Part shown: in pieces, positions 25,909-43,452 of the stretch
Layout: every line of letters begins with the position of its first letter
How positions within the stretch are numbered: position 1 is the first letter of the stretch
Sequence record: PQ799574.1
Origin: Escherichia phage vB_EcoM_Maryam
Strand: one strand, 5' to 3'
DNA length: 64,000 nt
Translations under genes and position numbers: made by a program
The notes under the pieces: generated by a model
The model's database searches: none
What the model was told of the DNA's origin: nothing
The model's input: only the letters and a program-made list of their open reading frames with translations

Positions 25909-26639
25909 TCACCGTTATAATCTTTTTTCACAATATGAGTTTCGCCAGTATTCCACCAATGATCAACCAAGTAAAAATGACGAGAATATACATGAAGACT
26001 TCCAACATTCCATATAATAGAACCTGCTTTATACTGACGAGTTGAATCGCCGGCATTCAAATCAGATACTAATTTATCTAATACGTATTTTTGCCATGCA
26101 TAATCATTACGGAATCCGAAGACCACGTCATTTGAGCGCATGCTTACTACTGCATTGACTTTCTTATCACGAATCAGGTACTGTACTGTATTAGTACACA
26201 TGAAATCTGACATACCATCTTTATTGTAGTCAAATTGCATGGATGGACGAGTATAAATCATGATACCACGTCGAGAATCAGGATTTTGACCAAGTTCAGC
26301 TAAACACATATCATACTGGGCATAGTTATCTTCTGACCAAATAGCCCAACCATAATTCGAGTTAATTTCGCCTTTAGAAGATGCTACCTGCTGCCAAATC
26401 TTTGGTGTTTCGCCTGGAATATCTTTAACAAACAAGCTCTTAGATTTATACCATTCAAGTTCACGCTGAATGTATTCATCATTAAGAGCGCCAAAAATAA
26501 AGGGTTCATCTGCTACAAATGATGCGCCAATAATTTCAATAGTTTTAACGCCAGTTTTATCAACTACGAAATCTTTTTCCTTTAATGCAGTTCCCAAATA
26601 AAAACGGATTTCTTCAACTGTCATAGAGTCATTAATCAT
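25899..26639 (-). CDS. 42: dCMP hydroxymethylase (gp42), 246 aa
   Basis: Length identical to T4 gp42; thymidylate-synthase-like fold. Confidence 0.9.
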   Translation of the reverse strand: MINDSMTVEEIRFYLGTALKEKDFVVDKTGVKTIEIIGASFVADEPFIFGALNDEYIQRELEWYKSKSLFVKDIPGETPKIWQQVASSKGEINSNYGWAIWSEDNYAQYDMCLAELGQNPDSRRGIMIYTRPSMQFDYNKDGMSDFMCTNTVQYLIRDKKVNAVVSMRSNDVVFGFRNDYAWQKYVLDKLVSDLNAGDSTRQYKAGSIIWNVGSLHVYSRHFYLVDHWWNTGETHIVKKDYNGEWK

Positions 26640-26646
26640 TTAAACC

Positions 26647-26796
26647 TCAATTGATACATTCATATTTAACTTGTAACAGTAATAAACCCCAACCTAAAAT
26701 AATAGTCGGAATCATAAGAGGAACCGTTACACTATAGTATATACTTATTATAATCATCAAGATTAAAAGCAACACTTCTATAATTTTGCTTTTCAT
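26647..26796 (-). CDS. small hydrophobic protein (49 aa)
   Basis: ATGA overlap with imm stop; GAGAGAAGGA RBS; own translation. Confidence 0.3.
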   Translation of the reverse strand: MKSKIIEVLLLILMIIISIYYSVTVPLMIPTIILGWGLLLLQVKYECIN

Positions 26797-27044
26797 TCCT
26801 TCTCTCTGATGATAATTACTTGATTTGGCTGTGCAGACTTTTTAGTTTCACCCGCAATTGACCAAATAAATGTAATAAACCAACCAATAATTGACCAGTT
26901 AAACAGCAAAGACGTGAAAAAGATTCCTACTGTCGATTTTGACCCACGCATCAAGGCGATAAACCATGGAAGCATGTATATAATAATAGCCAACACACCT
27001 GAAACTAAAACCATAAAAATTGAACCTGCTACTAAAGTTTCCAT
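26793..27044 (-). CDS. imm: immunity protein Imm (superinfection exclusion), 83 aa
   Basis: Two-TM membrane protein; T4 Imm length and position. Confidence 0.8.
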   Translation of the reverse strand: METLVAGSIFMVLVSGVLAIIIYMLPWFIALMRGSKSTVGIFFTSLLFNWSIIGWFITFIWSIAGETKKSAQPNQVIIIREKE

Positions 27045-27051
27045 GTTTTCC

Positions 27052-27432
27052 TCACTTAGTCAAATTTTTTACGCATGAATTATAAGAATTCACTACATAC
27101 TCCATCGGAGCATTTTTACCGGTACGCCATTGGTAATTATTAGCCCAATTTGCCCAAAGCTCGGCGCAGTAGTTTTCAATTTTTTCTTCGCGTGTAATTA
27201 CATCCGAATTACGATATGCTTGAGCAGATTCATCTGGACGAATAGCTTCGTCAAAATTTGCCTGCATTTGTTCTACTGTTTGCTTTGGAGCTTCTTTATA
27301 ACACTTGACATTAGGATTATAAAACTTGCTTGAACAGTTTACAATTTTTCCTACATCAGACTGATTTACTACCGGTCCTTGAGCCACACAACCAGTAAGA
27401 CCTAATGCAATAACCAAAATAGCGATTTTCAT
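27052..27432 (-). CDS. putative lipoprotein (126 aa)
   Basis: Signal peptide with lipobox LTGC. Confidence 0.5.
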   Translation of the reverse strand: MKIAILVIALGLTGCVAQGPVVNQSDVGKIVNCSSKFYNPNVKCYKEAPKQTVEQMQANFDEAIRPDESAQAYRNSDVITREEKIENYCAELWANWANNYQWRTGKNAPMEYVVNSYNSCVKNLTK

Positions 27433-27442
27433 AATAATTTCC

Positions 27443-27679
27443 TCAAATGCAAGTAGTAATTACTCCAGTAGTGCTTATGCAGGTATTACCCATTTGCACA
27501 CCTAAAGATCCATTTGTATTCACATGAAGATTATCATCAATTTTAACTGATATTTTACCATTAGTGTGAATAACGGTGCTAGATTTAATCACAGGTTGAG
27601 TATCATTTTCAACACTAATAAATGGAACTGCTACTAATGCAACTAAACAAACTGCTAAGCATCCCATAACAATTTTCAT
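27443..27679 (-). CDS. small secreted/membrane protein (78 aa)
   Basis: ATG with GGAGAATAAA RBS; N-terminal hydrophobic segment; repeated promoter cassette upstream. Confidence 0.5.
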   Translation of the reverse strand: MKIVMGCLAVCLVALVAVPFISVENDTQPVIKSSTVIHTNGKISVKIDDNLHVNTNGSLGVQMGNTCISTTGVITTCI

Positions 27680-27726
27680 TTTATTCTCCAAATCTGTATC
27701 AGTAGTTGATAGTTGTATAGTACCAC
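27672..27726. repeat. 55-nt repeated promoter/leader cassette, copy 2
   Basis: Exact match to 464-518. Confidence 0.7.
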
Positions 27727-27746
27727 AGAAGAACAGTCTTGTAAAC
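27717..27746 (-). promoter_or_regulatory. early promoter (PeSL-like), second copy of the repeated cassette
   Basis: GTTTACA-N17-TACTAT; 55-nt repeat shared with 464-518. Confidence 0.5.
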
Positions 27747-27823
27747 AGTTTTGTGAAAATTTTTTAGGGAATTCTAAAGGTCCAGAATCATCTGTTTTTC
27801 ATAAGTATAGATTTATATTACTT

Positions 27824-27850
27824 GTATGAAAAAGGGACCCGGAGGTCCCT
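27824..27850 (-). terminator. intrinsic terminator after gene 43
   Basis: GGGACC-UCCG-GGUCCC plus U-run. Confidence 0.7.
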
Positions 27851-27862
27851 AGATTTATTCTA

Positions 27863-30558
27863 TCAGCCAAACAGGAAGTCTAACGAAGCTTTTTCTTCAT
27901 AGTCCATACCAGCCGATTCACACATGCCTGCAAGCGGTTTAACAAACGATTTTTGGAACAAAGTTGAGTAGTCAATCCAAGATAGTACATCAGAACGAAT
28001 TTCTTTTGGAAGTTCTGTACCCGACGGCCAAGCAATGCACTTGTCGCCAAATGGATTTCCTTCACGTAATGGAAGAACCATTACCTTATTTCCATCCAAA
28101 ATTGGAGCTACACCCAGACCACTAACAGCTCGACGATAAGTTAGCACACCACGAATATGGAACGGGCATTTAAATCCTGGCCAACCTTTATCATCATATT
28201 TCGCTATATCGTTCGCAGTTTTTACTTCAGCAATAACTTTATAGTCAAGTTGACGATATTCTTTCTCGAAGTTCTTGTAATATTCTTGGACAGACTCTTC
28301 ACCTTCCTGAAGAATACGACGAATACTTTCTTCAAGAGCTTCTTGAACTGCTTTAGGCGTTGAACTTTGCTGAGTTTCCATACCCATGATTTTTAGATGC
28401 GGTTCAGCAAAACGCTTATCTTCCATATCATATACGTTCAGAGCATAACGCTTTTTCGCTTTCCAAAATCCACCAACGCCCTTTGAACCAAGTGGAGGGC
28501 AAGAAATAGCTTCACGGTCCATATGCATCAGATGCTCGCGGTTATTCATATAATCACATAACTCACGATATGCAACATCAATCATAGGTTCCATCTTTTT
28601 CTTACCGAACTGATTCATGAATTCAACTAAATCGTTCTGCTCTTTGAATCGGTCAAGACCAACTTTTTCAATAACTTTATCTACACAAACATATACCGAA
28701 TCAGTATCACCTGCTGCAATGAAATCTTCGCCATTAGTTCCGCACACTTTATTCAGATACTCATTAATTTTACGAGCAATCCACTGAATACCAACTTGGC
28801 CGAAAATTGTGATAGCAGTAGCATTTCGCAAATCATAGTAACGGAAATGAATATTACCAAGAGCACCGTAAAGGCTGTTAATAAGAATTTTACGGTTCAG
28901 CTGATTTGTATTAGCAAGTGTAGCCGCTTTTTCACATTCTTCAATCAAACTATTGAGAACAGATTCAGTATAATTCGATAGTTCATTTAAGAAATCATCA
29001 CTGAACTTAACATATCGTTCAACTTCAGGTTTAGTTGAACAAGACCCTGCGCCTTTCATAATAATCTTTTTAATAGCTTCGGCATTCATTTCTTCAGCGA
29101 ACATTTTCTTTTTCCAATCTTTACGCTGGAAAAATACTTTAGCGATTTCCTTTGGAATGATACCTTCTTGATGCTTATCGTACATCCATCCATTCGGAGA
29201 ACAAGAATATTCATCACTCGGTTTAGGAGCTGTTCCTGCGATATATTCATGAATTGGATGAACTTTAAACTGACCACGAATAGTCTCAGGACTAATGTTA
29301 ACCTGACGAATAATGCTCGGATACAGAGACGTCAAGTCAAAACTCATAATATATCGACGAGCAATTGGTTTAGGTTCAAATACAAATGCACCCGGAAAAC
29401 TCTGTTTAACGTGCGAACCTTGTTGAGGAATAACCTTATGTTCACCTTTCAATGAGTTAAAAATAATAGCATCCCAGGTTTTAATAGGACTCATTACACC
29501 AGAAAAAGGCATTTTAGCGTAATAAGACATACTTAAAACTAGATCGATAAACCCGCGAATTTTATCAATTGCTTGAACTGATTCTACGTCAATGATGTTA
29601 TAACTAATGTATCGTTGATGATTAGTCTCACGAAGTTTATTAATAGGACCGTCGTATGGTAATTTACCTTTTTTGGTTTCATGCTGAGCAACTGATTCCA
29701 AAGAGAATGACGGCAAATTAGTAAATGCGAATTTCTTATACAAATCTAAATAATCAAGAATAGATACGCCATCAATAGAATAAATTTCTTTGCTACCGTA
29801 CATATTTTGGATAAGTTTAGATTTTACTCGACCGATTGGAGAGAAGCGTTTCATACTACGTTCACCGAGAACCATTTTAACGCGATTCATGATATACGGA
29901 ACGTCAAATCCCTCAATATTCCAACCAGTAAAAATAGCAGGTCGTTTCTGTTCCCAGAGATTGATATATTCCATGAGCATATCACGCTCATTATCGAATG
30001 GCATATAAATTACTCGGTCAAGAATTTCTTGAGGAACTTCATCACCACCTTCACAGTCAAGCTTAGCAGCTAACTTTGCATCCCATTTTGATACTGAACC
30101 ATACATTGAATTCAAAAGGTCGAAAACATAAAAACGATCATCAATTGAATCGTAATGAGTGATAGCATCAATTTCATATTCAGCTTTCATTGGGTCAGGA
30201 AATTTATCACCAGTAACCTCAATGTCACAGTTAGCTACACGAACAAATTTTCGGTCATAAACAATTTCTGAACCGTATGTATCACTGATAAAGCGAGTTT
30301 AAAATCGTTCATACCGAGAGCTTCGAGACCGATGTCTTCCATTCGTTTCATCCAATCTCGAGCATCTTTCATTGATGGAAATTTTTGAGGAGCGCAGTTT
30401 TTACCATAGATGTCTTTGTACTTTGACTCTTCCTTACAATGCCTAAACATAGTTGGAAGATATTCTACTTCACGAGTACGTTCCTTTCCATTTTCATCAA
30501 TATAACGTTCAACAATATTATTTCCGACTGTTTCAATAGAGATATAAAATTCTTTCAT
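27863..30558 (-). CDS. 43: DNA polymerase gp43 (family B), reading frame broken by an apparent 1-nt deletion near 30289
   Basis: 107-aa N-terminal ORF (30235-30558) plus 775-aa ORF (27863-30190); the frame of the large ORF stays open upstream to about 30290; fragments sum to the 898 aa of T4 gp43. Confidence 0.85.
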
Positions 30559-30606
30559 AGATATTCCTTAGTTTATAGCCCGAGTTATTAGGCTCTTGAT
30601 ATATTA

Positions 30607-30635
30607 TACTCCAAATAAGGGGCCGAAGCCCCTTT
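30607..30635 (-). other. stable UUCG hairpin in the leader of gene 43 (possible terminator or regulatory structure)
   Basis: AGGGGC-UUCG-GCCCCU; weak U-run. Confidence 0.35.
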
Positions 30636-30638
30636 GCT

Positions 30639-30875
30639 TTAAATTTCTATTGTACGACGCGATATAACGGACTTGCCATCTGTATTTGTGGTTTTGATAA
30701 TCGCATGAAATGCGCGTTGGCGTGGGTAAACTAATCGTTGGAATTCTTTTTGGAATTCTATTTGTTTATCTTCCGGGAGGTCAAAAACCAGTTGGGTAGA
30801 AGACAGACCATATGTTTGTTTTAGATTTTCGAATATTAGAAAAGCTTCGGTAAACTGAATCTCTGATTGTGTCAT
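30639..30875 (-). CDS. hypothetical protein (78 aa) between regA and gene 43
   Basis: Internal ATG with RBS; the track ORF start overlaps regA. Confidence 0.4.
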   Translation of the reverse strand: MTQSEIQFTEAFLIFENLKQTYGLSSTQLVFDLPEDKQIEFQKEFQRLVYPRQRAFHAIIKTTNTDGKSVISRRTIEI

Positions 30876-30885
30876 ATAATTTACC

Positions 30886-31254
30886 TTAATTACCAATCGT
30901 ATATTTAGGAACGAGTTTCCATTCATGTTTTTGTTTAAAAGAAATAACTCGGAAGTTATTAGTTAAATCTTTCATAAAAGTTCTTTGACCAGGAACGATT
31001 TCAATCAGTCCCCAATCTTCTAACAACCATGCAATCGAATCACGACGAACTTCATCTTCTTCTGTCATTTCAACTTGGCGACCATCCATACGAAGCATTT
31101 CTTTAAAATGAACGATATAGTATAGTCCTTTTTTCTGAAGAATATGACAGGACTGATACAGAACTTTATCTTTATTATTAGCAATTCCCATACGAGTCAA
31201 AGTTTCTTTTACTTTCAGAAAATCTTCAGGTTTTTTAAGAGTAATTTCAATCAT
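30886..31254 (-). CDS. regA: translational repressor RegA (122 aa)
   Basis: Length identical to T4 RegA; position upstream of 43. Confidence 0.85.
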   Translation of the reverse strand: MIEITLKKPEDFLKVKETLTRMGIANNKDKVLYQSCHILQKKGLYYIVHFKEMLRMDGRQVEMTEEDEVRRDSIAWLLEDWGLIEIVPGQRTFMKDLTNNFRVISFKQKHEWKLVPKYTIGN

Positions 31255-31255
31255 T

Positions 31256-31801
31256 TTACCATTCCAATGCTAGTTTTTTGAGTTGTTTCTGTTCTTTTAC
31301 GTTCTTAGTCACTTCTTTCAAAAAATCATCCGTGACTAAACCTTTTAGTTCTTTTAATACTAAAGGAAGTTTTCCATTTTTAGTAAGAATTGATTTATAG
31401 TTAATTGCATCATTTGTATTAACTTGATACCACTTAGCAAGTAACTTAATAATCAATACTTCGGTGGAATCTTCAACCAGTTTTGCCCATTTACCGTATC
31501 TTTTACCACGAGGAACTGCAGCCATTAGATAATTAAAATGAGCTTCATCACTTAAGCCTGATCCAATTAAATTCATAGCATATACAGCTGGCATGCACTC
31601 TGGAAATTGTGATAATGCATTTTCAACCATGAATTTTGAATAATCTTTTTGAGCAATAGAGCATTTAGTTTTATTATTGATAGCTCCAATTATTTCAAAA
31701 AATTCATTTTCAGCTTTTTCTTTAAAAGAATCAGCAGCGGATTGGACAGCTGTCCAATCTTTTGAATACCAAGCAAGTAGGAAAAGATTATGTATGCCCA
31801 T
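31256..31801 (-). CDS. 62: clamp-loader subunit gp62 (181 aa), 5' end possibly altered
   Basis: Position next to regA; about 6 aa shorter than T4 gp62 as I recall it; in-frame TAA directly upstream of the ATG. Confidence 0.75.
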
Positions 31802-31909
31802 TTAGTTCTCCGGTAAATGGAATGCTAAAACCTGCTTTACGCGATCTTTATATTGCGATGAACGAAGAAATGATAAAAGAATTAAAACGTCAACTGAAGG
31901 TGATTTAAT

Positions 31910-32128
31910 TTGGCCAGGGAAATTAATTCAAAATCCGATTATTTTAATTCTCTCAATGATAAAGATAAAAATCTAATACGGCATTTTATTGTTGAGATGG
32001 GATATACCGATACACGCGATTTAAGAGAACATATATTTGAATGTGGTGTAGCTAAAAAGTTTTCATTCACATGCAAATGTTTGAGAGAGGTAATTCAGCA
32101 CTATGAACAATTTAGTCGCAAAACATAA
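31910..32128 (+). CDS. hypothetical protein (72 aa by track, TTG start)
   Basis: ORF only; start codon uncertain. Confidence 0.35.
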   Translation: MAREINSKSDYFNSLNDKDKNLIRHFIVEMGYTDTRDLREHIFECGVAKKFSFTCKCLREVIQHYEQFSRKT

Positions 32129-32211
32129 TTTTAATAAAGCTTCTGTTCATAAGGATAAGAAGAAAGCGTTTAAAGAATCTAATCGCAAGCAGAAACATAA
32201 GGGGAAGGTCT

Positions 32212-32490
32212 ATGATTATTGATTCTCAGTCTGTGGTTCAATACACAATCAAAATTGATATTCTAGAAAAGCTATATAAGTTTCTACCAAATTTATACCA
32301 CTCAATTGTTAATGAATTAGTTGAAGAACTACATCTCGAGAATAATGATTTCTTGATTGGAACTTATAAAGACCTCTCAAAAGCAGGATATTTCTACGTA
32401 ATTCCAGCACCAGGAAAAAGTATTGATGATGTATTAAAAACTATAATGATTTATGTCCATGATTATGAAATTGAAGATTATTTCGAATGA
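32212..32490 (+). CDS. arn: Arn anti-restriction protein (inhibitor of McrBC), 92 aa
   Basis: T4 Arn length; adjacent to asiA; GGGGAAGG RBS. Confidence 0.7.
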   Translation: MIIDSQSVVQYTIKIDILEKLYKFLPNLYHSIVNELVEELHLENNDFLIGTYKDLSKAGYFYVIPAPGKSIDDVLKTIMIYVHDYEIEDYFE

Positions 32491-32639
32491 GTCATAATCT
32501 TGAAAAAGTAATCGAGCATAATGTAGCTCAGGAACGTAAGTCGTTCAAGGAATTCGTAGAAAAAATTTTTGAAGAAAATAGCACAGACCAGTTTACAAAT
32601 CAAACGTCTGATGATATTATAACAAAGTCAACTAATTGA
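32487..32639 (+). CDS. small protein (50 aa), asiA.1-like
   Basis: ATGA overlap with arn stop; own translation. Confidence 0.35.
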   Translation: MSHNLEKVIEHNVAQERKSFKEFVEKIFEENSTDQFTNQTSDDIITKSTN

Positions 32640-32651
32640 GTGGTATAGTTA

Positions 32652-32924
32652 ATGAATAAAAATATTGATACAGTTCGTGAAATTATTACTGTTGCGTCTA
32701 TTTTGATTAAATTTTCCAGAGAAGATATTGTTGAAAATCGTGCTAATTTTATTGCATTTCTGAATGAGATTGGAGTAACGCATGAAGGTAGAAAGTTAAA
32801 TCAGAATTCATTCCGTAAAACTGTTTCTGAATTAACTCAAGAAGATAAGAAAACCCTCATCGACGAATTCAACGAGGGTTTTGAGGGTGTATATCGATAT
32901 CTAGAGATGTATACGAACAAATAA
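32652..32924 (+). CDS. asiA: anti-sigma-70 factor AsiA (90 aa)
   Basis: T4 AsiA length; convergent with holin t. Confidence 0.85.
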   Translation: MNKNIDTVREIITVASILIKFSREDIVENRANFIAFLNEIGVTHEGRKLNQNSFRKTVSELTQEDKKTLIDEFNEGFEGVYRYLEMYTNK

Positions 32925-33581
32925 TTATTTAGCCCTTCCTAATATTCTGGCCGCCTGAGCACATATTGATTCAAGGCGGTCATTACTTATATGATCATTT
33001 CTATACCAGTACATGGTTATCGTTCCAGCATAGATATTATCCAAATTAAAATATGGACAACTGTACATGTAGTTTATTTCAGGAGTAGGCTTTTTAGTTG
33101 GTAAAAAAGCAAATTTTGAGTTGGAATAATAATGACGTCCATTTAAATGAACTGCATATTCATCCATAGTTTTATCAACAGGATATCCTCCAAGTGATTT
33201 TTCACTTATTGTTGAAGGTAATTTTCCTTCATATGCTATAATATCAACAAAATAGTTTAAGTTTTTAGGGCGGAAAGAATACACCGCACTAAAGTCTGCC
33301 TCAGATGATATATGAACTATCTGGAGTTGTTCCAGGGCGACAGATTCAAAGCGTGCATTTCTTTCCTTTTCAATAATTTCACTGTATGTTTCATACTTTG
33401 ATTGCTTATAGTACTCAAAGAAACTATCTCCCCTATACCAAACAATCGCCATCATAAATAAAAGAATTACGACAGCTACACGGGAAGCAAGAACTTTCCC
33501 GGTAGCGTTATCTTTGAACAAGCGATCTAGAACACCAAATAGAATATCAGAGGGCGAAAATGATATTCTAGGTGCTGCCAT
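32925..33581 (-). CDS. t: holin T (218 aa)
   Basis: Length identical to T4 holin; single N-terminal TM segment; follows gene 38. Confidence 0.9.
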   Translation of the reverse strand: MAAPRISFSPSDILFGVLDRLFKDNATGKVLASRVAVVILLFMMAIVWYRGDSFFEYYKQSKYETYSEIIEKERNARFESVALEQLQIVHISSEADFSAVYSFRPKNLNYFVDIIAYEGKLPSTISEKSLGGYPVDKTMDEYAVHLNGRHYYSNSKFAFLPTKKPTPEINYMYSCPYFNLDNIYAGTITMYWYRNDHISNDRLESICAQAARILGRAK

Positions 33582-33611
33582 AGACCCTCCTTTTAAGGAT
33601 ATTTATTCAAA

Positions 33612-34388
33612 TTATACTCTTGGACCATATATTGCTCCAACATTTTGCCACGTTGGAGAAGACCCTATAACAGCATATCCAGAATCGCCGCCATTGTATT
33701 CAGATCCTTGACCACGAATATTACATCTACCTCCTGCGGCGCCTACCTCACCACCGCTTCCGCCATTATAGATACCGTTCACGGACCCCGATCCAGGCGC
33801 ATAAAGAGTACCAGCAGTTGCGCCTGATTGCATATCAATAGATCCGCCAGGTGCACCAAACGGACGCCCACCACCACCACCAAAGGTTAATCTCATTTGT
33901 GAAAAAGGAGAATAATACCCACCGCCACCACCGCCACCACCGGCAGCAATAGCTCCGCCATTATTAATTCTTAGTCTCCCACCAATATCGTTTTGAATAC
34001 AATGACCTCCAGCTGAGCCAGGACTATTGCTACCGCCATTACCTCCACGACCATACATCGTTACGCCGTGTATATTTAACTGAACATATTCATTTGGTGT
34101 ATCTCCGTACATAAAGAATAAAGGAACATCTTTAGAATATGATACTAAATCACCTGTAATATTAAACACTATAGGTGCACTACCTGCCTCAAAACATCTA
34201 TCTCGGAACCATTGACCATTGAAGTTATGGTCTGCTCCAAGCGTGTGAATTATTTCAACAGATCGACCTATCATATTACTCATCCAAAACGGAACGCCCA
34301 TTCTTAATCTTGCGGCTGCTCCTGCCATCCAATGGTCTCCAGTCTGTGCCAATGCAGAAGTTCCTATCCACGGTCCTGCTACTGCCAT
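33612..34388 (-). CDS. 38: gp38 receptor-recognising adhesin (T2/Ox2/K3 type), 258 aa
   Basis: Poly-glycine segments flanking variable loops; GGAGG RBS before ATG at 34388; follows gene 37. Confidence 0.8.
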
Positions 34389-34398
34389 ATAAACCTCC

Positions 34399-34416
34399 AA
34401 GGGGCCGAAGCCCCTC
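34399..34416 (-). other. intercistronic UUCG hairpin between genes 37 and 38, next to the gp38 RBS
   Basis: GGGGC-UUCG-GCCCC directly upstream of GGAGG. Confidence 0.4.
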
Positions 34417-34419
34417 TTA

Positions 34420-37400
34420 TTATTTTAACAATGATTTAACTAATGCTTTAAGTTCTTCGATTTCTGATTTAAGTTCTGCAATTTCTGCAGTATGCTCATT
34501 GATTGCAGCTGTATTTAAACCAATTACACCGTTATAGTTCAAACGAAGTAAAGCTTCGCCATCAGGGTCACCTTCAACTAATTCTGGTAAAATAGCTTGA
34601 ACTTCTTGAGCAATTAAACCGGCGTTAGGTTCCCATTTCTGATTGCCTTCTTCATCTAGGCCTCGCTTCTGCATATAAGTGTAACCGTTAATTTTGGAAA
34701 GCTTCTCAGAAGCATTTTCAAATTTAACAAGGTCTTTTTTAACACGAATATCAGAACGGACATAAACATCTCGAACAAATGTGGAATAGGCATCGCTCTG
34801 TTGGACTAAATGACCAAAAGAAATAATAGCTCTTCCTTGTTCAGTCCACAAAGCACCAGTGGTATCCCAAAGACCTTCATGGAGATGGTAAGCGGACGAC
34901 CATGAAGCAATATGCATTCCATTTGCAACCATATTAATTCGCCCATCACCGCCATGAACTAATCCAGTATCATTATCACCAATAACAAGACATGGTCCAG
35001 TCCACACCGGGTCACCACCGCCAGCTGATAATCTTGCTCCGGTTTGAACCATGTTAGGAACATACAGAACTCCAGTGTGGTGGAATTCATAGATAGCTTG
35101 TGGGTCAGAACCGTTTTCCTGGTTACCTACACGAATAATACCTTGTGCCCAGTTATTAGTAATGCGACGCATACCAAAATCAACGCTAGATATGTATCCT
35201 TCATTCGTAATAGCAGATTTTCCTTTAATAATAGGATAATAACTATCATTACCAACATTACCAAAATCTACAAATATCGGAGCTTCTTGTCGCCATTGGT
35301 TTCCCCAATCGCCAGCCTGGTGCGCAGTCCATTGTGTACCGTTTATATGAAGGCGGTCTCTATTAAAATTAAATGTTCCTTGACCTTGAGGAGAAAGCGA
35401 TATTTCGCCGTTATTTGTTATGTATACACCACCCTGTGTAATGTAACTGTAAAAACCTAGACCGTTGTCGCCGCCACCTTTGCCTATATACCAGTTATTT
35501 GTACCACCTACATCACTACGGATATGTGATGAAGCACCTCCGCCAGCAGTTAAAACGAGAGCATCATTGCCTGCTGATAAAGTCAATTTACCAGTCATCG
35601 TGTCGCCTTCTTTAGAAACACGAGTAGCTATTGCATCGCGAATATTTGTGGTTTCTCCCGCAGAAGTAAACGATTTCCAAATATCTGAGAAAATATTACC
35701 ATTACGAGCAATAGTAGCTTCACCGCCGCCGACTTGAACGTTATCGGGGAAATTAACTGTACCGTCTTGATTAAAACGAGACGTATGGCCTTGTGAACCA
35801 TCTTCTTTTAAATGATGTAAAACAAATGTACCCGAATTAATTTCAGTACCTAAAGACCAAACAGCTTTACTGTTTAAAAACTTCTGTTTAACAATAGGAT
35901 AATATTTACTTACTGCGTCATCATCGATTTCCTGGAAAATAGGAGCTGCTTGAACATATTGAATATCATAACCACCAGCGCCAGCGCCGTGACCAGTAAA
36001 TTTAATATATCCGTTTGCTGCGAACGTATTGTAACTTGATTGTAAATCTGGAATAGTAACTTTACCAGTATCTAAAGCCATACTAAACGGGCGAAGTGGA
36101 CCGATATCACCATGTTTACCTTCACCATAAGCAGTTGGAATAATATGAAGACTGCCTTCTGAACGTCTAAAAATAGCTCCATAATCTGCGTTCCAAATGC
36201 GAAGAGCATTCACTGCTCCAGATGAAATTTCGCCTGTTGTGTGAACTCCTCTATTTCCAGCAGTAACACCAGATGATTCAAATGAACCGTTAACGTTCAT
36301 TTCTACTTCACCTGTTGTAAGTCTTTGAATATAGCTCATCCAGCTAGTTGCATCGGAAATTTCCATGACATTTTTGCGATTACCTTCACTAGGAATAGTA
36401 AATGTATTACCCCACACGGAAATTGTCATATTATCAACTGAACTACTACCAGTTGTGTTACCTCTAAACATCAGTGTAGAAGCATTATTTCTACCATCGA
36501 TATTAACAGAACCACCAATAACGTCAATATTACCAGGAGTAACTAACAAACCGCCATGAGTATTAATGTTTGTGGTACCCTTGCCGCGGAAATAATGATG
36601 ATAGTTACCGCCTTGATAATATCCTAAAAGAGTCTGACCATCTCCAAACGCGTTATTATCGTGATATGTCACGACAGTAGCAAGAGCATAATTTTCAGTT
36701 GGAGGAGTAGTTAAATCGGTTCCGTTAGTAGAATATCCAGCTACAAATTTTCTTAGGCTAGTTGTTTCGCTAGGACTAAATAAAAACGTTTTTGTTCCAT
36801 TATTAACGCTAAAATAATATCCATCTTGATGCCATTTAAATCCAGTATCATTATCTCCTAAAGCAATACTAGATTGTCCTAATATTGAATAATCTTTATT
36901 ACCAGGTGTTAAACCAATAGAAATTGAGTGACTTGATTTAATTCCGCCGCTCCAAGTAAATGACCAAAGATAGGTGTCAAGTCCATCACCTGCATACCAA
37001 GTTATTCCATCATTATCTTTAACTTCATGGAAAATACCAGAACCAACGGCATTACGCATGACACGAAGATGATTAATAGCAGTAGTGCTTTCAGACAATG
37101 GAACATTGTCTGCCATCGAATAGATGTCATAATCACCCGTAGATTTATTATTAGTAATGACTTTGTTGGTCAGAATTTGTGGAGACGAAATAGATTTCCA
37201 TGCTGATACTTCAGGTGAAGTAAATAGTCCACTGCCTGAAAATGCATAAGTGCTTTCGCTACCAGCGGCGTAGTCTTGAACCCTGATATTAAGTACTTGT
37301 GTAGTTAAACCATCATTAGCCGGGGCATAAATGATTCCGCGTTCGCGACTATTGTTATCGAAAAAACGAACATGCGCTGTACCTGAACTTTTTGTAATAA

Positions 37401-37731
37401 GTTCTCCGCCTTCAGTCATAATCTGCCCAGCGGAAATAATATCGCGAGTTACTCGAGCAATACCAATTAAATTAAAATTACCAGTCTGAGTGAAGACGCC
37501 ATTTAAAGTATAATCGCCAGTTTGGTTATAATTGCCTGTATGAATAACATTCCCGTCAATACTACCGCCTTTAGCAAAACCCAGATCAATAATATTTCCT
37601 TGGTCATCTTTAGTAAAAAGTACACGGTCTTTTAAGTTTATAGCCAATTCACCTTCGGCTAATACTGAAGCGGCAGGACGTGCTCCTGCAGTTTTGCTTC
37701 TTTTAAATTGTATTTGTTTTAAAGTAGCCAT
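34420..37731 (-). CDS. 37: long tail fibre distal subunit gp37 (1103 aa) with C-terminal chaperone-like domain
   Basis: Size and synteny 34-35-36-37-38; C-terminal SDIRVKKD motif and coiled coil. Confidence 0.9.
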
Positions 37732-37739
37732 AAGTCCTC

Positions 37740-38396
37740 TTAATAATAGCCGAAATCTTGAACAGAATCCTTAATAACAATTTGGTCAAATCGTGGAACA
37801 TGCGAGGGTTGAGATGCAGGATTCTGTGAAAAAAGGTTTGGCGCAGTTAAATTTCCTGTCATAGTGTCTCCAGAGCGTAATACCCTAGAGTTTGCGTTTG
37901 CTGTAACAATATTTATTGCTCCATCAACATAATCTTTCCGCGTAAGGTCATAATTATTTACTGGTGATAACGAAGTTACACGGATTTGTGATGCTTCAAT
38001 TACGCCCTTTGAGCTAATATCTCCATTTCGTGTGTTAATTACTACAGTTCTACCTGCTGTTCCTTGTGATGATTTAAAACCAATACCATACCACGAAACA
38101 ATATCCATATTTGTAGTATCATACGTGGCACTATCACCAGGACCAGCAAAAATACCATTATCGCCTGACCCTGCGCCAGGAACAGTCATTCCTTTATTAA
38201 AAATTACTTTATTTAAATAAGTACCACCATTAGCTTTAGAAACGAAATCGTTATCTGCAGCTTGTGGTTTATTATATTCTGAATATATTTTAAATGATTT
38301 ATAGAGTACATCGTCACCGGCTGGATTCAATGGAAAATTTCCTTGATGCCAAATGACAGAGCCTCCGGTTGTTGAACCTACTTTTAAATCAGCCAT
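37740..38396 (-). CDS. 36: long tail fibre hinge protein gp36 (218 aa)
   Basis: Synteny and size; late promoter upstream. Confidence 0.8.
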   Translation of the reverse strand: MADLKVGSTTGGSVIWHQGNFPLNPAGDDVLYKSFKIYSEYNKPQAADNDFVSKANGGTYLNKVIFNKGMTVPGAGSGDNGIFAGPGDSATYDTTNMDIVSWYGIGFKSSQGTAGRTVVINTRNGDISSKGVIEASQIRVTSLSPVNNYDLTRKDYVDGAINIVTANANSRVLRSGDTMTGNLTAPNLFSQNPASQPSHVPRFDQIVIKDSVQDFGYY

Positions 38397-38419: not shown

Positions 38420-38427
38420 TATTTATA
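38420..38427 (-). promoter_or_regulatory. late promoter TATAAATA upstream of gene 36
   Basis: Forward tatttata between the gene 35 terminator and the gene 36 start. Confidence 0.5.
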
Positions 38428-38458: not shown

Positions 38459-39574
38459 TTAAACTTCTCTAAATTCCTGTCCAAACACTTTACCAGTTTT
38501 AGACGATGCTTGCGTAGGAAGTACCATTATATCCGGAGGTGAAGCAGATTCACAGATATAATTAACTCGAATACCATTGACGCCAAACTCAGCAGGTTTT
38601 GAAATGCCACCATTTCTTGACACTTCAGAAAAGCTTAAATTTCTCATACCGCCTTGACCCGCTTGTGCAGTTCTCTGTGCGTATATCGTAAATCCAACTG
38701 CATTTTCTGGAACAACTACATAATCTTCTTTTAATTCCCAAGACCCAGCTTGTCCGGTAAACTCAGCATGTGTTGAAGAAATATATCCATCCGATTCATT
38801 ATAAAATCTAATGGATATATTCGTAGTTCCAAGAGCAAGTAAATCGGCATCAGCATATAGTTGTGCTTTAAGATAAAGAACATCGCCAGGAATTAAATTG
38901 TAGTCAGAAAGTTTACTTATCGCGGATGAAGTTGGTAGACGTGCAATTTCGTTATTAGTTCCACCAACCGCTGACATAAACTGCTCAACGCTTTCATATG
39001 TTCTTCTTGGAAACCCGGTAGCTCCAACGTCTTCTAAACTGTCAAATACAACATCTAAAATAGTTTGATAATCATCAGTGCTTTTTCTGTTGCTCAGTTT
39101 AACATGCTCTAATGCGATAGCTCTTTTAGAAGAAGTGTAAAAAGAAGCATATGATACATCAAATCTTGACAATACAGAGTCAGATGGAAAAGCAGACGTT
39201 CCTGCTGTTCTTAGCCAAGATACTACTTCAGGAGGAAAATTAACCTTTCCGCTAGTTAATATAGCAACAATTCTATTATTCGTCAAAGAATTCATGAAAC
39301 TAACAAAAGCAGCTGATGTAGTATCATTTGAAGTAGAAAAAGCATATGACTTACTATCAACTAATGCTCCTGTAGAAGGGTCAAAAACTCTTAAATGAAG
39401 ACCTGCGCTAAATGTTTGACTTCCTACAGGATTATCCTGAAATTTAACATATGGTCCTGCTGTAGAAAGCGGGCAAGAACCCGCTATACTTATTTTGTAT
39501 CTTACTGAATTACTTTCCGATAAAAATGGCGTTTGGACGTATCCTTGTCCAAACTCTGCCATAAATTTTTCCAT
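38459..39574 (-). CDS. 35: long tail fibre hinge connector gp35 (371 aa)
   Basis: Synteny and size. Confidence 0.8.
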   Translation of the reverse strand: MEKFMAEFGQGYVQTPFLSESNSVRYKISIAGSCPLSTAGPYVKFQDNPVGSQTFSAGLHLRVFDPSTGALVDSKSYAFSTSNDTTSAAFVSFMNSLTNNRIVAILTSGKVNFPPEVVSWLRTAGTSAFPSDSVLSRFDVSYASFYTSSKRAIALEHVKLSNRKSTDDYQTILDVVFDSLEDVGATGFPRRTYESVEQFMSAVGGTNNEIARLPTSSAISKLSDYNLIPGDVLYLKAQLYADADLLALGTTNISIRFYNESDGYISSTHAEFTGQAGSWELKEDYVVVPENAVGFTIYAQRTAQAGQGGMRNLSFSEVSRNGGISKPAEFGVNGIRVNYICESASPPDIMVLPTQASSKTGKVFGQEFREV

Positions 39575-39582
39575 AATACCTC

Positions 39583-42500
39583 TTATTCAACCCATTCAAA
39601 TTTAACAGTTTTATTCACTGGGTCAGGAATAATACGAACATTACCAATTCGCAAGAAATCACGAATAGTAAGATTACCCATTATAGCATTATCAGATGGT
39701 AAAGCACCGATATCAGATGGCTGAGGAGGGTTACCTCCGTCAAATACCTGAACAAAACTTGACCAAGAGTTTTTGGTTTTCTGCCATGTGCGTGTCCAAC
39801 GAGTGGTACGCGCTTCTGGTGTTGTTGGATAAGTAATCCAATCTTGGTAAAGCGAATCAAGTGTGTTACCAAACTGAGTCAATGTACCAGGAGATTTAAC
39901 TTCTTCGCCACGTTCTAAGTATGGAAGTCCAGTCACTTCATTAGTTTTTTCAACCATTTTAAAATAACCAGGGAATTGATTATAAGTGGCTGAATCGTTA
40001 ATATCAATTGACCAGAATCCTACTGTATCAGTTGTTGGTGCGCGGGTATATAAATCAGATGTTTTAGTGCCCTGAGAACGAATTCTCGAGTTAACAGTCA
40101 AACCGCCTGAATTTATAGTAGCACCTTTGGCAATAATTAAGCTTTCGCCAATCGTTACTTGGCCAGATGCATTATTAATAGCTAAAGGACGTAATCCATT
40201 AAATCCACCAGTCTGATCACCCGATGCAGTAAGCATAAAATTCGTTACTGATCCATCATTGCGAACAATGAAACCATAATTTCCGTTAATAGCACGGAAA
40301 GCATTTGCGCTTCGAGAAATAATTTCACCAGTTGCAGTGACTGAATTACCAAATGTTGCTACACCATTTGCATTCAATGTTCCTGAAGCATTAACATTTA
40401 TAGGTGTTACTGTACCGTTGATATTAAATGTTATATTTCCGGCTTTATTGCGCTGAGAATAAAAATGACTAGATGTTTCATCACTAACTTCAAATACGGT
40501 AGAACGTGTTGTATCTAATTCCCCACTAAATTGATTTCCCCACACTCTAACAGTCATCGTTTGGGCTGGGTTTGTTCCAGTTTGAGGTCCTTTCTCAAAA
40601 ATCAATCGAGTTGCTGTTCCAGTATTAGAAATAGTTAATGTACTATTTGCTGAAACTGATCCACCGAACGTAGCAGTACTAGATGATACAAGAGGGGCAC
40701 TCAGATTCGTTTGTTGGGTTAAGGTTAGTGAACCATTAACTGTCTGCGCAATGTCCCTACGAATGAACTGAGATGAATCTAGACCATCCAATAAATTACT
40801 ATCTACAGCTTTTGCTTTTAATGGCAAATAATTTGCTAATACACGGTTTAATTCATATGGTGATACTGCATAACCATTTTTCTCATATGATTCTAATGGC
40901 TGTGTTGAACCTACCGTATCATTACCAACAAACGTTAATGAACCAGAAGAAGTTTTAACAAAGCCCCTTATCGCAGTAGTTGCTGCCCAAGTAGATTCGC
41001 TCTGCACAATCCATTTTAAATTTTTTGGAGATACAGCAGTATTTGCTGACGTTCCAGTCACAGTTTCAGACTGAGTTGCAACTTTAATAACACCTTCTTG
41101 TGCTTCAGTAGATTTAGTACCTAAAAGCTTTTTAGGAGTTATTAAAACATTATCTAATGTTCCTGCAGCAGCTTCGACCTGTGTAGCTACACGAAGTGTA
41201 CCACGCTGTGTCTCATTTGCTTCAAGAATATCAAGGGTATAATGGTCCCAGAGAGTTCCTGATTCAACTAATCCAGATAGAGCAACAACAGAAGTACGAT
41301 CAGTACTATTAAATCTGGTTTTAATTTTTAATGGTGTAGAGATACGAGTATCGTCGACGCCTGCGTCGAATTCAACCTGTGTAGCAATTTCAGCTATACC
41401 ACTTAAACTTTCAGTTGCTCTACGGTCATTTAAAGTTTTAGGAGTGACTGCACGAGTATAGTCAGTTCCTGTGTTAACTTCACTTTGCGTAGCAATTTCA
41501 ATTAAACCAATTCTTGCATCAGTTGATGTCTTTTTATGTAACGTTTCTGGCGTTACAACCGCATTTGCCCATCCTTCTTGGCTTTGTCCAGCAATTACTT
41601 CACTTTCAACTGCTAAAATTACTGCGCCTTGTTGCGTTGGAGTAGCTTTATACTGATCCAAAGCTTTAGGTGAAACAACTAAATTATTAGTGTTTTTATT
41701 ATAAACATTCGTACCATTTAATTCACGACTAGAAGCTGGAGTAGCACCTGCAGTAGATACAAAGGTTACAATACCAGATAATGATTCAGAACCTTGACGA
41801 GCTTGAAGCTTTTTAGGAGTGATGATTGTAGTATCATCGGTTCCTGCATTAGTTTCTTGCTGCGTAGCAATTTCTGCGACACCTCTACGAGTTTCTGTAG
41901 CAGTTCTTTCATTCAGCTTTTTAGGAGTAATGATAAGGTCATCTGCAAAAGAGAATGTGGTGTTCTGATTCACTTGAGCAGTAGTTGCTATTCTTGCAAT
42001 ACCTCTACGAGTTTCTGTAGCAGTACGATTAGCTAACGTTTCTGGAGTAATTGCCAATTCTTTTTGTGGAGAATTTTCTAAATCAGCATTAGCTTGAGCT
42101 TGTGTAGCTAAAGCAATTACACCTAATCTTGCTCTAGTAGAATCATTTAAAGAATCTACTCTTTCTACGGTTGGAACATTTTGCTGTACAACCCAATATT
42201 TTCCGTCAGAATCTTCTATATAAGCAAGCTCTAAAACTGGAACATAATTAGTTTCACCGTTAAAAACTAATTCTTGAACTGTAACCCACTCAGCTTCAGG
42301 TGGATATTCTGAGCGTTTTGGGAATTGCAGCAATTGAACTGAAGAAGCAATTTTATCTTCACCTGCAGCTTTGATTTTAACCGTTTGTCCTTTTCTCATG
42401 TAATTCATAGAAATTTTGACAGTATCACCAACAGAAATATCAGTCGGAAGCTGAAGTTCAATTGTTTGGGTTGTTCCATTATTCGCGCCAAATACCATGA

Positions 42501-43452
42501 CTTCTTCGTTTGGACGAATATTAGAATTAGTTGTTATAATGCGTAAACGTGCTTTACTATCCCCGTCAAACAATCTCCACAATTTCTCATTATCATCAAA
42601 CATCAAGAAACCGTCAATCGATGTACGGCCTTCAATGGAATGAGTTCCAACTTCTTGTACTGAAGTTGTTTCATCATATGTAGTAACAATTGTGTGATAA
42701 AGAGGATTTAATTTATCCAAATCAACGAAATTAATAATATCGCCATGATTGGCAAATCTTGGAAGTTTAATATTAATTGCTGAAGCAGAAGTAAATCTAC
42801 GTACGATAAAATCGTTTGATTGTGCCTGATAGAGACTCGCAGGAGTTACAACTACAGCTTCTCTACTATAATCAGCAACATACATTTGCCACAGACGATT
42901 ACTAAAAATTAAAACTATCTGTGATTTTGGATGAGTCATTAGTACTGAACGTACTTGCTGACCTCTAAAATTTACAATGCTTTGTACCGGAGCTGTAATT
43001 AAAACTTGATTAACTCCAGGTTTTCCTCCAATATCTTGGAGAACGATGGTATCACCATCAATTGGAGAAGATGGTAAAGTAAATGTAATGTCATTACCAG
43101 CTGCAGTATCAACTGAAATTGATTCGCCCGATTTTAATTGATAAGGTCCTGATGAAACAGTTGTCCAGTTTGCATCAGTACGTAACGCTCTCCATCGTAC
43201 GCTATTAAAAGCTCCTGCTGGTTTTGGAATATCATTTATAGCAGCCCAAAAGCGGTTATCATAAATGATTACAAAATCTTTTAAATATCCACGAGTTGGA
43301 TCATATTGTTGAACTGTGTTTTCTTGAATTAAGTAATCAACGTTAACGCCGTCAGTTCCTACGGCACGATCAGCTAAAGCTACGTTGATTATTTTATCAC
43401 CACCTGCGTCCAGACCATCTTCTGCTCTGAACTTTCTTTTAATCTCGGCCAT
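39583..43452 (-). CDS. 34: long tail fibre proximal subunit gp34 (1289 aa)
   Basis: Length identical to T4 gp34; internal ITPKKL-type fibre repeats; late promoter upstream. Confidence 0.9.
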   Translation of the reverse strand: MAEIKRKFRAEDGLDAGGDKIINVALADRAVGTDGVNVDYLIQENTVQQYDPTRGYLKDFVIIYDNRFWAAINDIPKPAGAFNSVRWRALRTDANWTTVSSGPYQLKSGESISVDTAAGNDITFTLPSSPIDGDTIVLQDIGGKPGVNQVLITAPVQSIVNFRGQQVRSVLMTHPKSQIVLIFSNRLWQMYVADYSREAVVVTPASLYQAQSNDFIVRRFTSASAINIKLPRFANHGDIINFVDLDKLNPLYHTIVTTYDETTSVQEVGTHSIEGRTSIDGFLMFDDNEKLWRLFDGDSKARLRIITTNSNIRPNEEVMVFGANNGTTQTIELQLPTDISVGDTVKISMNYMRKGQTVKIKAAGEDKIASSVQLLQFPKRSEYPPEAEWVTVQELVFNGETNYVPVLELAYIEDSDGKYWVVQQNVPTVERVDSLNDSTRARLGVIALATQAQANADLENSPQKELAITPETLANRTATETRRGIARIATTAQVNQNTTFSFADDLIITPKKLNERTATETRRGVAEIATQQETNAGTDDTTIITPKKLQARQGSESLSGIVTFVSTAGATPASSRELNGTNVYNKNTNNLVVSPKALDQYKATPTQQGAVILAVESEVIAGQSQEGWANAVVTPETLHKKTSTDARIGLIEIATQSEVNTGTDYTRAVTPKTLNDRRATESLSGIAEIATQVEFDAGVDDTRISTPLKIKTRFNSTDRTSVVALSGLVESGTLWDHYTLDILEANETQRGTLRVATQVEAAAGTLDNVLITPKKLLGTKSTEAQEGVIKVATQSETVTGTSANTAVSPKNLKWIVQSESTWAATTAIRGFVKTSSGSLTFVGNDTVGSTQPLESYEKNGYAVSPYELNRVLANYLPLKAKAVDSNLLDGLDSSQFIRRDIAQTVNGSLTLTQQTNLSAPLVSSSTATFGGSVSANSTLTISNTGTATRLIFEKGPQTGTNPAQTMTVRVWGNQFSGELDTTRSTVFEVSDETSSHFYSQRNKAGNITFNINGTVTPINVNASGTLNANGVATFGNSVTATGEIISRSANAFRAINGNYGFIVRNDGSVTNFMLTASGDQTGGFNGLRPLAINNASGQVTIGESLIIAKGATINSGGLTVNSRIRSQGTKTSDLYTRAPTTDTVGFWSIDINDSATYNQFPGYFKMVEKTNEVTGLPYLERGEEVKSPGTLTQFGNTLDSLYQDWITYPTTPEARTTRWTRTWQKTKNSWSSFVQVFDGGNPPQPSDIGALPSDNAIMGNLTIRDFLRIGNVRIIPDPVNKTVKFEWVE

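Follow-up and report, generated by a model that had tools for sequence, protein, structure and literature searches.

The question raised by this locus was whether its gp38 is a receptor-recognising adhesin that caps a processed gp37, or a folding chaperone as in phage T4. The window analysed was the whole stretch of 64,000 nucleotides from Escherichia phage vB_EcoM_Maryam (PQ799574.1). Within it, positions 33612-34752 span the gp38 coding sequence, a 31-nt intergenic spacer, and the final 110 codons of gp37 plus the stop codon.

Gene order and expression signals

Gene 38 (33612..34388, minus strand; 258 aa plus stop) was assigned to the T6-type receptor-recognising adhesin gp38 from its open reading frame, Pfam and PDB matches, AlphaFold2 model, and Foldseek results. 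Gene 37 (34420..37731, minus strand; 1103 aa), the precursor of the distal subunit of the long tail fibre, was identified by its open reading frame and the Pfam families Peptidase_S74 and Gp34_trimer. Gene t, encoding the holin (32925..33581, minus strand; Pfam Phage_holin_T, 5.9e-117), lies directly downstream of gene 38, and genes 36 and 35 are located at 37740..38396 and 38459..39574, respectively. The order 36-37-38-t is the canonical T-even order. Between genes 35 and 36, a pattern search found TATAAATA (38420..38427, minus strand), a late promoter box of the T4 type; with promoter function carried over from knowledge of T4, the box is the likely start of a 36-37-38(-t) late transcript.

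The start codon of gp38 is ATG, preceded by a GGAGG Shine-Dalgarno sequence 5 nt upstream (34394-34398). The list of open reading frames placed the start at a TTG four codons earlier, within the region of the Shine-Dalgarno sequence and a hairpin. This intercistronic C(UUCG)G tetraloop hairpin (GAGGGGC-UUCG-GCCCCUU; 34399..34416, minus strand) was obtained by RNA folding and lies between the gp37 stop codon and the gp38 Shine-Dalgarno sequence. It is identical in vB_Eco_CP, T4_ev151, FL23, and RB27, and T2 retains it with a shorter stem (GAGGGC-UUCG-GCCCUC). An Rfam scan of the whole window gave no families at the gathering score, and the hairpin belongs to no curated family.

Two irregularities were observed outside the fibre genes. 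Gene 62 and an open reading frame of the arn region are cut short by a breakpoint at 31776/31777, which lies 1.1 kb past gene t, and gene 43 is frameshifted by a 1-nt deletion at about 30291. They raise the possibility of errors in the source assembly, but both fibre genes, 37 and 38, are intact. The clean breakpoint and the deletion would also fit a locus that stems from a chimeric or defective assembly and does not represent a functioning fibre module, but positions 31777 to 38000 are collinear with many complete phage genomes and genes 34 to t are complete and have normal signals, which makes such an origin very improbable.

The class and domains of gp38

The Pfam profile GP38 (PF05268) matched gp38 over aa 45-258 (8.8e-71, 238.7 bits, cut-off 25) and Gp38_N (PF21721) matched aa 1-40 (1.7e-19, 70 bits, cut-off 25). 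A sequence search of the PDB matched gp38 to the adhesin structures of PP01 (9v85) and S16 (6f45_D), at 1.7e-79 and 5.6e-49, respectively. The AlphaFold2 model (pLDDT 90.5) had strands in the central region and three short helices at the N-terminus, and in Foldseek it matched 9v85 at 1.3e-26 (9v85_C, TM-score 0.88, target-normalised) and 6f45_D at 6.1e-23 (TM-score 0.82, query-normalised). The resemblances of gp38 and gp37 to curated families and solved structures, with E-values from 1e-12 to 1e-79, are not due to chance. The receptor-binding domain of PP01 gp38 (PDB 9V85, 2026) was the top match in both sequence and structure, with 66% identity. PP01 recognises OmpC on E. coli O157, and its hypervariable segments differ throughout from those of the gp38 studied here. 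S16 gp38 aligned end to end, with three tryptophan prongs, a beta-helix, and a polyglycine sandwich in common; the tip complex of S16 gp37 and gp38 (PDB 6F45; Dunne et al. 2018) has the same two-protein architecture.

These matches bear on the T4-type reading, in which gp38 would serve as a folding chaperone only and be missing from virions, while receptor binding would fall to the C-terminus of gp37. The gene names and order are as in T4, and some homologue records carry the label "distal long tail fiber assembly catalyst", a name inherited from T4. The full-length matches of gp38 are, however, to adhesin families and solved adhesin structures; its Pfam matches are adhesin families only, with no tail-fibre-assembly family at E<=0.01. 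Likewise, the C-terminus of gp37 is an S74 domain, predicted to cleave itself, and not a T4-like needle tip: its Pfam matches are S74 and Gp34_trimer only, and a PDB sequence search (E<=0.1) gave no match to the T4 gp37 tip structure. The T4-type arrangement is thus improbable in the extreme, and the earlier note was right to call gp38 an adhesin and not a chaperone, a distinction that the two Pfam families, the homology to S16 and PP01, and TM-scores of 0.82-0.88 all uphold.

As an adhesin, gp38 is predicted by its model to fold into three domains, the last of them a polyglycine-II sandwich. The N-terminal attachment domain (aa 1-44; 34257..34388, minus strand; Pfam Gp38_N) contains Trp7, Trp20, and Trp35, which are conserved in 42, 41, and 34 of 42 aligned adhesins, respectively. 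[quoted passage not shown] The attachment domain is not of the T6 type: it equals that of T4_ev151 and is 75-80% identical to the Ac3, wV7, and FL08 types. Within this subtype, strict lock-and-key co-variation between the gp38 N-terminus and the gp37 tip was considered and rejected at fine scale, as RB27 combines a tip like the one in the window with a gp38 N-terminus like that of vB_Eco_CP; N-terminus and tip variants are probably interchangeable.

The central beta-helix region (aa 45-112; 34053..34256, minus strand) has strands in the model, the domain names following the S16 structure (PMC6851490). Of the seven Tequatrovirus-type cluster representatives with which it was compared, five were 97-100% identical; identity was 87-93% for T6, FL08, and wV7 and 43% for T2. 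The specificity domain (aa 113-258; 33615..34052, minus strand), a predicted polyglycine-II sandwich with receptor-binding loops, was resolved by an entropy profile into glycine-rich motifs (GRM1, aa 113-119; GRM2, 127-157; GRM3, 170-178; GRM4, 209-219; GRM5 plus the C-terminus, 233-258) and hypervariable segments (HVS1, aa 120-126; HVS2, 158-169; HVS3, 179-208; HVS4, 220-232). Runs of eight and five glycines occupy aa 150-157 and 170-174, and glycine makes up 32% of aa 115-258. In an alignment of 119 sequences, the five glycine-rich motifs were conserved (mean column entropy 0.14-0.94 bits) and the four hypervariable segments were variable (1.60-2.41 bits), a contrast that bears out the proposal that polyglycine stretches separate variable segments. 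Compared with S16, the specificity and attachment domains are 48% and 55% identical, and the gp37 tip has a 12-residue insertion here.

The gp37 tip and its C-terminal domain

The distal tip of gp37 (aa 914-992, ending in FVRDVYVR; 34756..34992, minus strand) is homologous to the crystallised beta-helix tip of S16 gp37 that docks gp38. A phmmer search matched S16 6f45_A over aa 914-1103 at 7.6e-43, the insertion lying within this alignment. The tip is followed by a C-terminal intramolecular chaperone domain of 111 aa, predicted to cleave itself (aa 993-1103; 34423..34755, minus strand), in which Pfam Peptidase_S74 (PF13884) matched aa 993-1052 with 48.5 bits (cut-off 22). The earlier note had read the last 110 or so residues as an intramolecular chaperone ending in a coiled coil; the S74 match, the homology to S16 6f45, and the Foldseek matches to 7dc3, 3gw6, and 3gud agree with this.

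The domain was modelled as a 118-aa fragment (pLDDT 80.5), and the model, a monomer prediction from a shallow alignment of 12 sequences, gave the fold of the chaperone domain, with its alpha/beta body, beta-hairpin, and long C-terminal helix, when the structure of the gp37 C-terminus was checked in this way. Residues 81-117 of the model form a single long alpha-helix (aa 1066-1102; 34426..34536, minus strand), in keeping with the proposed coiled-coil-like ending and one heptad longer than in more distant homologues. Given that the chaperones of T5 and K1F have a central trimeric coiled coil (PMC4690869), the helix of this monomer model would be expected to form one too. Foldseek matched the model strongly to the eukaryotic MyRF ICA domain (7dc3; 8.2e-6, probability 1.00) and weakly to K1F endosialidase (3gw6; 3.7e-2, 0.96) and the GA-1 protein (3gud; 8.7e-2, 0.90). 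The homologue search with the 118-aa fragment returned 16 short proteins and no full-length gp37, hence the shallow alignment and the weak matches to 3gw6 and 3gud. K1F endosialidase (3GW6), the GA-1 neck appendage (3GUD), T5 pb1 (Garcia-Doval 2015), and the MyRF ICA (7DC3) share the Pfam family and a Ser-x4-Lys dyad with gp37. In these relatives, as here, the domain directly follows a trimeric beta-helix and consists of a mixed alpha/beta body and then a long C-terminal helix. They differ in what the departing chaperone uncovers: an enzymatic spike or a tip that itself binds the receptor in the relatives, and here, as proposed, the docking face for a separate adhesin.

Residues 992-999 of gp37 are RSDIRVKK, the codon of S993 occupying 34753-34755 and that of D994 starting at 34752. 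The dyad consists of Ser993 at the domain boundary and Lys998 five residues on; among the ten homologues covering the site, the serine was conserved in nine and the lysine in all. The S16 motif xxxxS^SDRRIKK aligns with DVYVR^SDIRVKK here, and T2 gp37 has the same motif, VYIR-SDIRLK. S16 gp37 autocleaves at DLNVS^SDRRIKK, exposing the dock for gp38 (PMC7917993), and T5 cuts Thr1263^Ser1264 by means of Ser1264 and Lys1269 (PMC4690869). As the catalytic serine departs with the chaperone in both S16 and T5, the scissile bond is predicted to be R992^S993, before the serine, which would yield a mature gp37 of 992 aa and a freed domain of 111 aa. Both autoproteolysis and the exact bond are thus assigned by homology. 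Processing near residue 993, as predicted earlier, agrees with the S16 and T5 sites and with the processing of T2 and T6 gp37 reported in PMC3157838; the cut drawn between S and DIRVKKD probably lies one residue too far.

The C-terminal domain could also be kept in the mature fibre or be removed by another protease. This was judged very unlikely: both residues of the Ser/Lys dyad are present at the right spacing, a retained chaperone would block the face on which gp38 docks in S16 (PMC7917993), and PMC3157838, citing Drexler 1986, describes T2 and T6 gp37 as proteolytically processed and then capped by gp38. Among the relatives compared, the gp37 proteins of FL23 and vB_Eco_CP have the same length (1103 aa) and the same chaperone domain, and that of vB_Eco_CP is 82-100% identical by block. 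T2 gp37 is 1341 aa long, with 16-62% identity per 100-residue block, and is reported to undergo C-terminal processing and capping by gp38 (Drexler, Riede and Henning 1986; Riede et al. 1987).

Receptor assignment and the working of the fibre tip

The comparison set for gp38 comprised T2 (AP018813), T6, M1, and S16 (the last from the PDB alignment), the adhesins of K3 and Ox2 being left out. Aligned with this set, gp38 had a specificity domain closest to that of T6: identity over aa 113-258 was 91% to T6, 69% to the OmpA binder M1, and 49% to T2. T2 uses FadL/OmpF as receptors. Its attachment and specificity domains are 48-49% identical to those of gp38 here. The likening of gp38 to the adhesins of T2, Ox2, and K3 holds for the class; the specificity domain is like that of T6, not like those of T2 or M1. 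S16 binds Salmonella OmpC, and the adhesin here is T6-like.

An exact look-up of the gp38 sequence matched no record; about 40 phage records have a gp38 at least 90% identical, the nearest at 96.1%. Whole-protein identity was 92.2% to FL23 and FL44, 90.0-90.4% to FL04 and FL15, and 90.7% to RB27. Deletion of tsx abolishes infectivity of FL23, FL44, FL04, and FL15 (PMC12032242), and RB27 is counted among the T6-like Tsx users (PMC3157838). The specificity domain is of the type common to these Tsx adhesins (T6, RB27, FL23, FL44, FL04, FL15; Trojet et al. 2011, Lutz et al. 2025). Across the hypervariable segments, gp38 is separated from the Tsx-dependent FL23 and RB27 by three residues at most. 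As the loops are of the T6 type, the predicted receptor is Tsx and not the receptors of T2, K3, or Ox2; judged by sequence, the primary receptor of gp38 is most probably this nucleoside channel.

Against the tested Tsx phages, gp38 has L195/Y196 in HVS3 in place of I/S, A149 at the start of the long polyglycine helix, and other scattered substitutions. The HVS3 variant might direct the adhesin to a receptor other than Tsx, or to Tsx together with another protein, for example OmpA: PST, three residues away from T6, gains recognition of OmpA and of Yersinia (PMC3157838), and type 1 OmpA adhesins are phylogenetically near the Tsx adhesins. On the other hand, HVS2, HVS4, and most of HVS3 match those of T6, RB27, and FL23 with little or no difference, the PST-type substitutions in HVS2 and HVS3 were looked for in gp38 and were absent, and in both surveys like adhesins went with the same receptor. 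A non-Tsx or dual receptor was accordingly considered rather unlikely, and Tsx remains the preferred assignment. Two or three substitutions in the hypervariable segments are enough to alter or broaden specificity (Trojet et al.; PMC3157838). It is conceivable, if distinctly unlikely, that the particular allele, with L195/Y196, Ala149 shortening the central polyglycine helix, and a non-T6 attachment domain, has a receptor range shifted or broadened relative to the tested T6-like adhesins, for instance towards Tsx variants of other enterobacteria or towards Tsx plus OmpA as in PST. If true, this would be a natural case of loop-level retargeting.

Taken together, the locus very probably encodes the distal, receptor-binding part of a T2/T6/S16-type long tail fibre from a Tequatrovirus. 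This part would work as follows. Gp37 would be synthesised as a precursor of 1103 aa, of which the 111 residues S993-K1103 would act as a trimeric S74 intramolecular chaperone that nucleates the triple beta-helix of the fibre tip and sets its register. After this helix has folded properly, the dyad of Ser993 and Lys998 would cleave the R992-S993 bond and the chaperone trimer would depart, exposing a flat tip that ends in DVYVR. One gp38 monomer would then cap this tip through its N-terminal three-helix attachment domain with Trp7, Trp20, and Trp35, the 3:1 stoichiometry of gp37 to gp38 being assumed by homology. The C-terminal polyglycine-II sandwich, built on five glycine-rich motifs, would turn the hypervariable loops towards the cell surface, where loops of the T6 type would most probably recognise Tsx as the primary receptor. 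The prediction that the gp38 loops set the host range is acceptable for the primary protein receptor and too simple for host range overall.

The capping of a self-processed gp37 by an adhesin is already known, having been set out for T2 in 1986-87 and for S16 by the structure of 2018. The receptor-binding tip is of the ordinary T-even type and adds nothing conceptual to this system. The value of the locus is practical only: its T6-type assignment gives a testable receptor prediction, Tsx, for the phage, and the placement of the cut at R992^S993 would mark the end of the mature tip for the engineering of chimeric fibres.

Adhesin class and predicted receptor of gp38

Gp38 (258 aa; gene 38, 33612..34388, minus strand) belongs to the T2/T6/S16 class of adhesins. 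The Pfam domains GP38 (aa 45–258, 8.8e-71) and Gp38_N (aa 1–40, 1.7e-19) were matched, and comparison with PDB sequences returned the receptor-binding domain of PP01 gp38 (9v85, 1.7e-79) and S16 gp38 (6f45_D, 5.6e-49), the latter matched end to end. The AlphaFold2 model (pLDDT 90.5) was superimposed on 9v85 with a target-normalised TM of 0.88 and an rmsd of 2.3 Å, and on 6f45_D with a TMq of 0.82. Glycine accounts for 32% of aa 115–258, the longest runs being 8 and 5 residues. In a 119-homologue alignment, mean column entropy was 0.14–0.94 bits in the five glycine-rich motifs and 1.6–2.4 bits in the four hypervariable segments (HVSs) between them, a layout that is the architecture given by Trojet et al. 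2011. The tryptophans at 7, 20, and 35 are conserved and are counterparts of the gp37-docking tryptophans of S16. A 303-aa database protein from an E. coli-labelled contig (P0073) has both Peptidase_S74 and GP38 domains, and is probably a gp37 C-terminus joined to gp38 via a frameshift or a gene-calling artefact.

The earlier note had assigned gp38 to the T2, Ox2, and K3 type. The adhesin class was retained, and the subtype was revised: over the specificity domain (aa 113–258), gp38 is 91% identical to T6 and 93% to the large cluster represented by the database protein P0002, versus 69% to the OmpA binder M1, 56–57% to the FL08 and wV7 types, 49% to T2, and 48% to S16. Whole gp38 is 96.1% identical to T4_ev151, 92.2% to FL23 and FL44, 90.7% to RB27, and 90.0–90.4% to FL04 and FL15. 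The gp38 attachment domain (aa 1–44) is not of the T6 type: it matches that of T4_ev151 completely and is 75–80% identical to the Ac3, wV7, and FL08 types, an ordinary case of modular shuffling. Deletion of tsx in MG1655 abolishes the infectivity of FL04, FL15, FL23, and FL44 (PMC12032242), and Tsx is the receptor of phages with T6-like adhesins, RB27 included (Trojet et al.). HVS2 and HVS4 match the segments of these Tsx-using relatives exactly or almost so, as does most of HVS3, and gp38 lacks the three PST-type substitutions that confer additional recognition of OmpA and Yersinia. Because the domain is T6-like, the tested relatives need Tsx, the HVSs are nearly shared, and the PST-type substitutions are missing, Tsx is predicted from sequence to be the receptor, with fairly high confidence. 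RB27 combines a gp37 tip of the window type (aa 954–992) with a gp38 N-terminus of the vB_Eco_CP type (aa 1–44); the gp37 and gp38 partners thus do not strictly co-vary within this attachment subtype.

C-terminal chaperone and predicted processing of gp37

Gp37 (1103 aa; gene 37, 34420..37731, minus strand) ends in an S74 intramolecular chaperone. Peptidase_S74 ('Chaperone of endosialidase', Pfam) was matched at aa 993–1052 with 48.5 bits (cut-off 22), and aa 914–1103 were aligned to the S16 gp37 chain of 6f45 (7.6e-43), a match that takes in the chaperone as well as the beta-helix tip. The motif RSDIRVKK holds Ser993 and Lys998, spaced like the T5 pb1 dyad (Ser1264/Lys1269), and both residues are conserved in the homologues covering the site. 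The K1F endosialidase has the same conserved catalytic residues as T5 pb1 (PMC4690869). In the AlphaFold2 monomer of aa 986–1103 (pLDDT 80.5), a hairpin and a terminal helix of 37 residues accompany a small alpha/beta body. The best PDB fold matches of this model all come from the S74 chaperone family: 7dc3 (MyRF ICA domain, 8e-6), 3gw6 (K1F endosialidase chaperone, probability 0.96), and 3gud (GA-1 chaperone, probability 0.90). The terminal coiled coil proposed earlier is recovered as the predicted helix, and the corresponding helix of T5 and K1F builds a central trimeric coiled coil (PMC4690869).

In S16, the last 113 residues of gp37 are autocleaved (DLNVS^SDRRIKK) and the gp38 docking surface is exposed (PMC7917993), and in T5 the Thr1263-Ser1264 bond is cut, so that the released chaperone retains the serine, which is also the case in K1F (PMC4690869). 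By alignment with S16, the scissile bond of gp37 is predicted to be R992^S993, so that mature gp37 would be 992 aa and the released domain 111 aa long. The position suggested in the earlier note, near residue 993, agrees with this, while its S|D bond is one residue off, as the S16 and T5 cuts precede the serine. T2 gp37 carries the same motif (VYIR-SDIRLK). According to PMC3157838, which cites Drexler 1986, the gp37 of T2 and T6 undergoes proteolytic processing and is then capped by gp38. Tryptic peptide mapping is unable to prove gp37 autoprocessing because the P1 residue is arginine.

Elsewhere in gp37, aa 448–550 (approximately 36082–36390) matched the trimerisation domain of gp34, the proximal fibre protein (Pfam Gp34_trimer, 4.8e-8; PDB entries 4uxe and 5nxf, approximately 1e-12). 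This gp34-like segment reflects the sharing of modules that is known among long-tail-fibre genes. Residues 701–800 (approximately 35332–35631) are 95% identical to vB_Eco_CP and just 50–62% to FL23, T4_ev151, and RB27, to which most other gp37 blocks are 83–100% identical; such a mosaic block is typical of recombinational shuffling of the fibre shaft.

Gene order, transcription signals, and integrity of the window

The window is a genome segment of a T4-like (Tequatrovirus) phage. Genes 34 (39583..43452), 35 (38459..39574), 36 (37740..38396), 37, 38, and t (holin, 32925..33581) are on the minus strand. The ATG of gene 38 has a Shine-Dalgarno sequence (GGAGG) 5 nt upstream and gp38 homologues begin MAV.GPW; the TTG four codons before it, from a mechanical ORF list, falls within the Shine-Dalgarno/hairpin region. 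The span 33612–34752 consists exactly of gene 38, the final 110 codons and stop of gene 37, and 31 nt of spacer between the two, with D994 of gp37 starting at 34752 and S993 at 34753–34755. A late-promoter box, TATAAATA (38420–38427, minus strand), is located between genes 35 and 36; it fits a late transcript of 36-37-38(-t), which is presumed by analogy with T4.

A stable hairpin with a C(UUCG)G tetraloop (34399–34416, minus strand) lies between the gp37 stops (TAATAA) and the Shine-Dalgarno sequence of gp38. Four close relatives carry it unchanged, and T2 retains it with a differing stem (GAGGGC/GCCCUC). The hairpin probably stabilises the mRNA or serves in its processing, like elements known between the cistrons of T4. 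It matched no Rfam family; the scan of the whole window (1–64000) returned no family at gathering score, and neither a group I intron nor any other curated RNA turned up in the 64 kb, nrd genes included.

A clean breakpoint is present at 31776/31777. To its left (1–31776), rIIA...43-regA-62 are in standard orientation and collinear with T-even genomes, and 26000–31776 is 99.5% identical to Shigella phage KRT47. To its right, the sequence is inverted, from inside an arn-region ORF via asiA, t, 38, 37, 36, and 35 to 34; the arn-to-34 region is approximately 130 kb away in related genomes. Gene 62 (clamp loader) loses its first codons at the junction, and an arn.2-like ORF is interrupted there. 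The junction shows no obvious microhomology and is spanned by none of the 991 matching phage records. It is either a real large inversion/rearrangement, probably lethal, or an assembly/concatenation artefact. In gene 43 (27863..30558, minus strand), a 1-nt deletion at approximately 30291 splits the polymerase into 107-aa and 775-aa ORFs; relative to KRT47 (plus strand), GATATAAGC is changed to GATAAAGC, outside any homopolymer. The cause is a sequencing error or else a mutation that inactivates this essential gene. At approximately 30783 (ORF 30639..30926, minus strand), a 1-nt A-run insertion (GGTCAAAAACC versus GGTC-AAAACC in KRT47) looks like a homopolymer error. It may lengthen a small ORF: between 43 and regA, a 95-aa ORF overlaps regA, and KRT47 annotates just a 38-aa ORF. 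The breakpoint and both indels suggest that the assembly is imperfect or rearranged, although the fibre genes are intact.

Database spread and proposed fibre assembly

By megablast, 742 phage records matched the locus, and for 121 of these the match extended over 80% or more of its length. Gp38 was covered to at least 80% in 386 records, approximately 40 of these being at least 90% identical. The exact-sequence look-up found no database record of this gp38, which therefore represents a new allele within a system that is already known, and nothing at the gp37/gp38 locus would be surprising to a specialist.

By homology to S16, T5, K1F, and T2, the C-terminal chaperone would assist trimerisation of the gp37 precursor, correct folding of the beta-helix would trigger Ser/Lys autoproteolysis, the chaperone trimer would come off, and a gp38 monomer would dock on gp37 through its Trp prongs. 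The HVS loops on the gp38 polyglycine sandwich would then bind Tsx, as their near-identity to those of the tested phages suggests.
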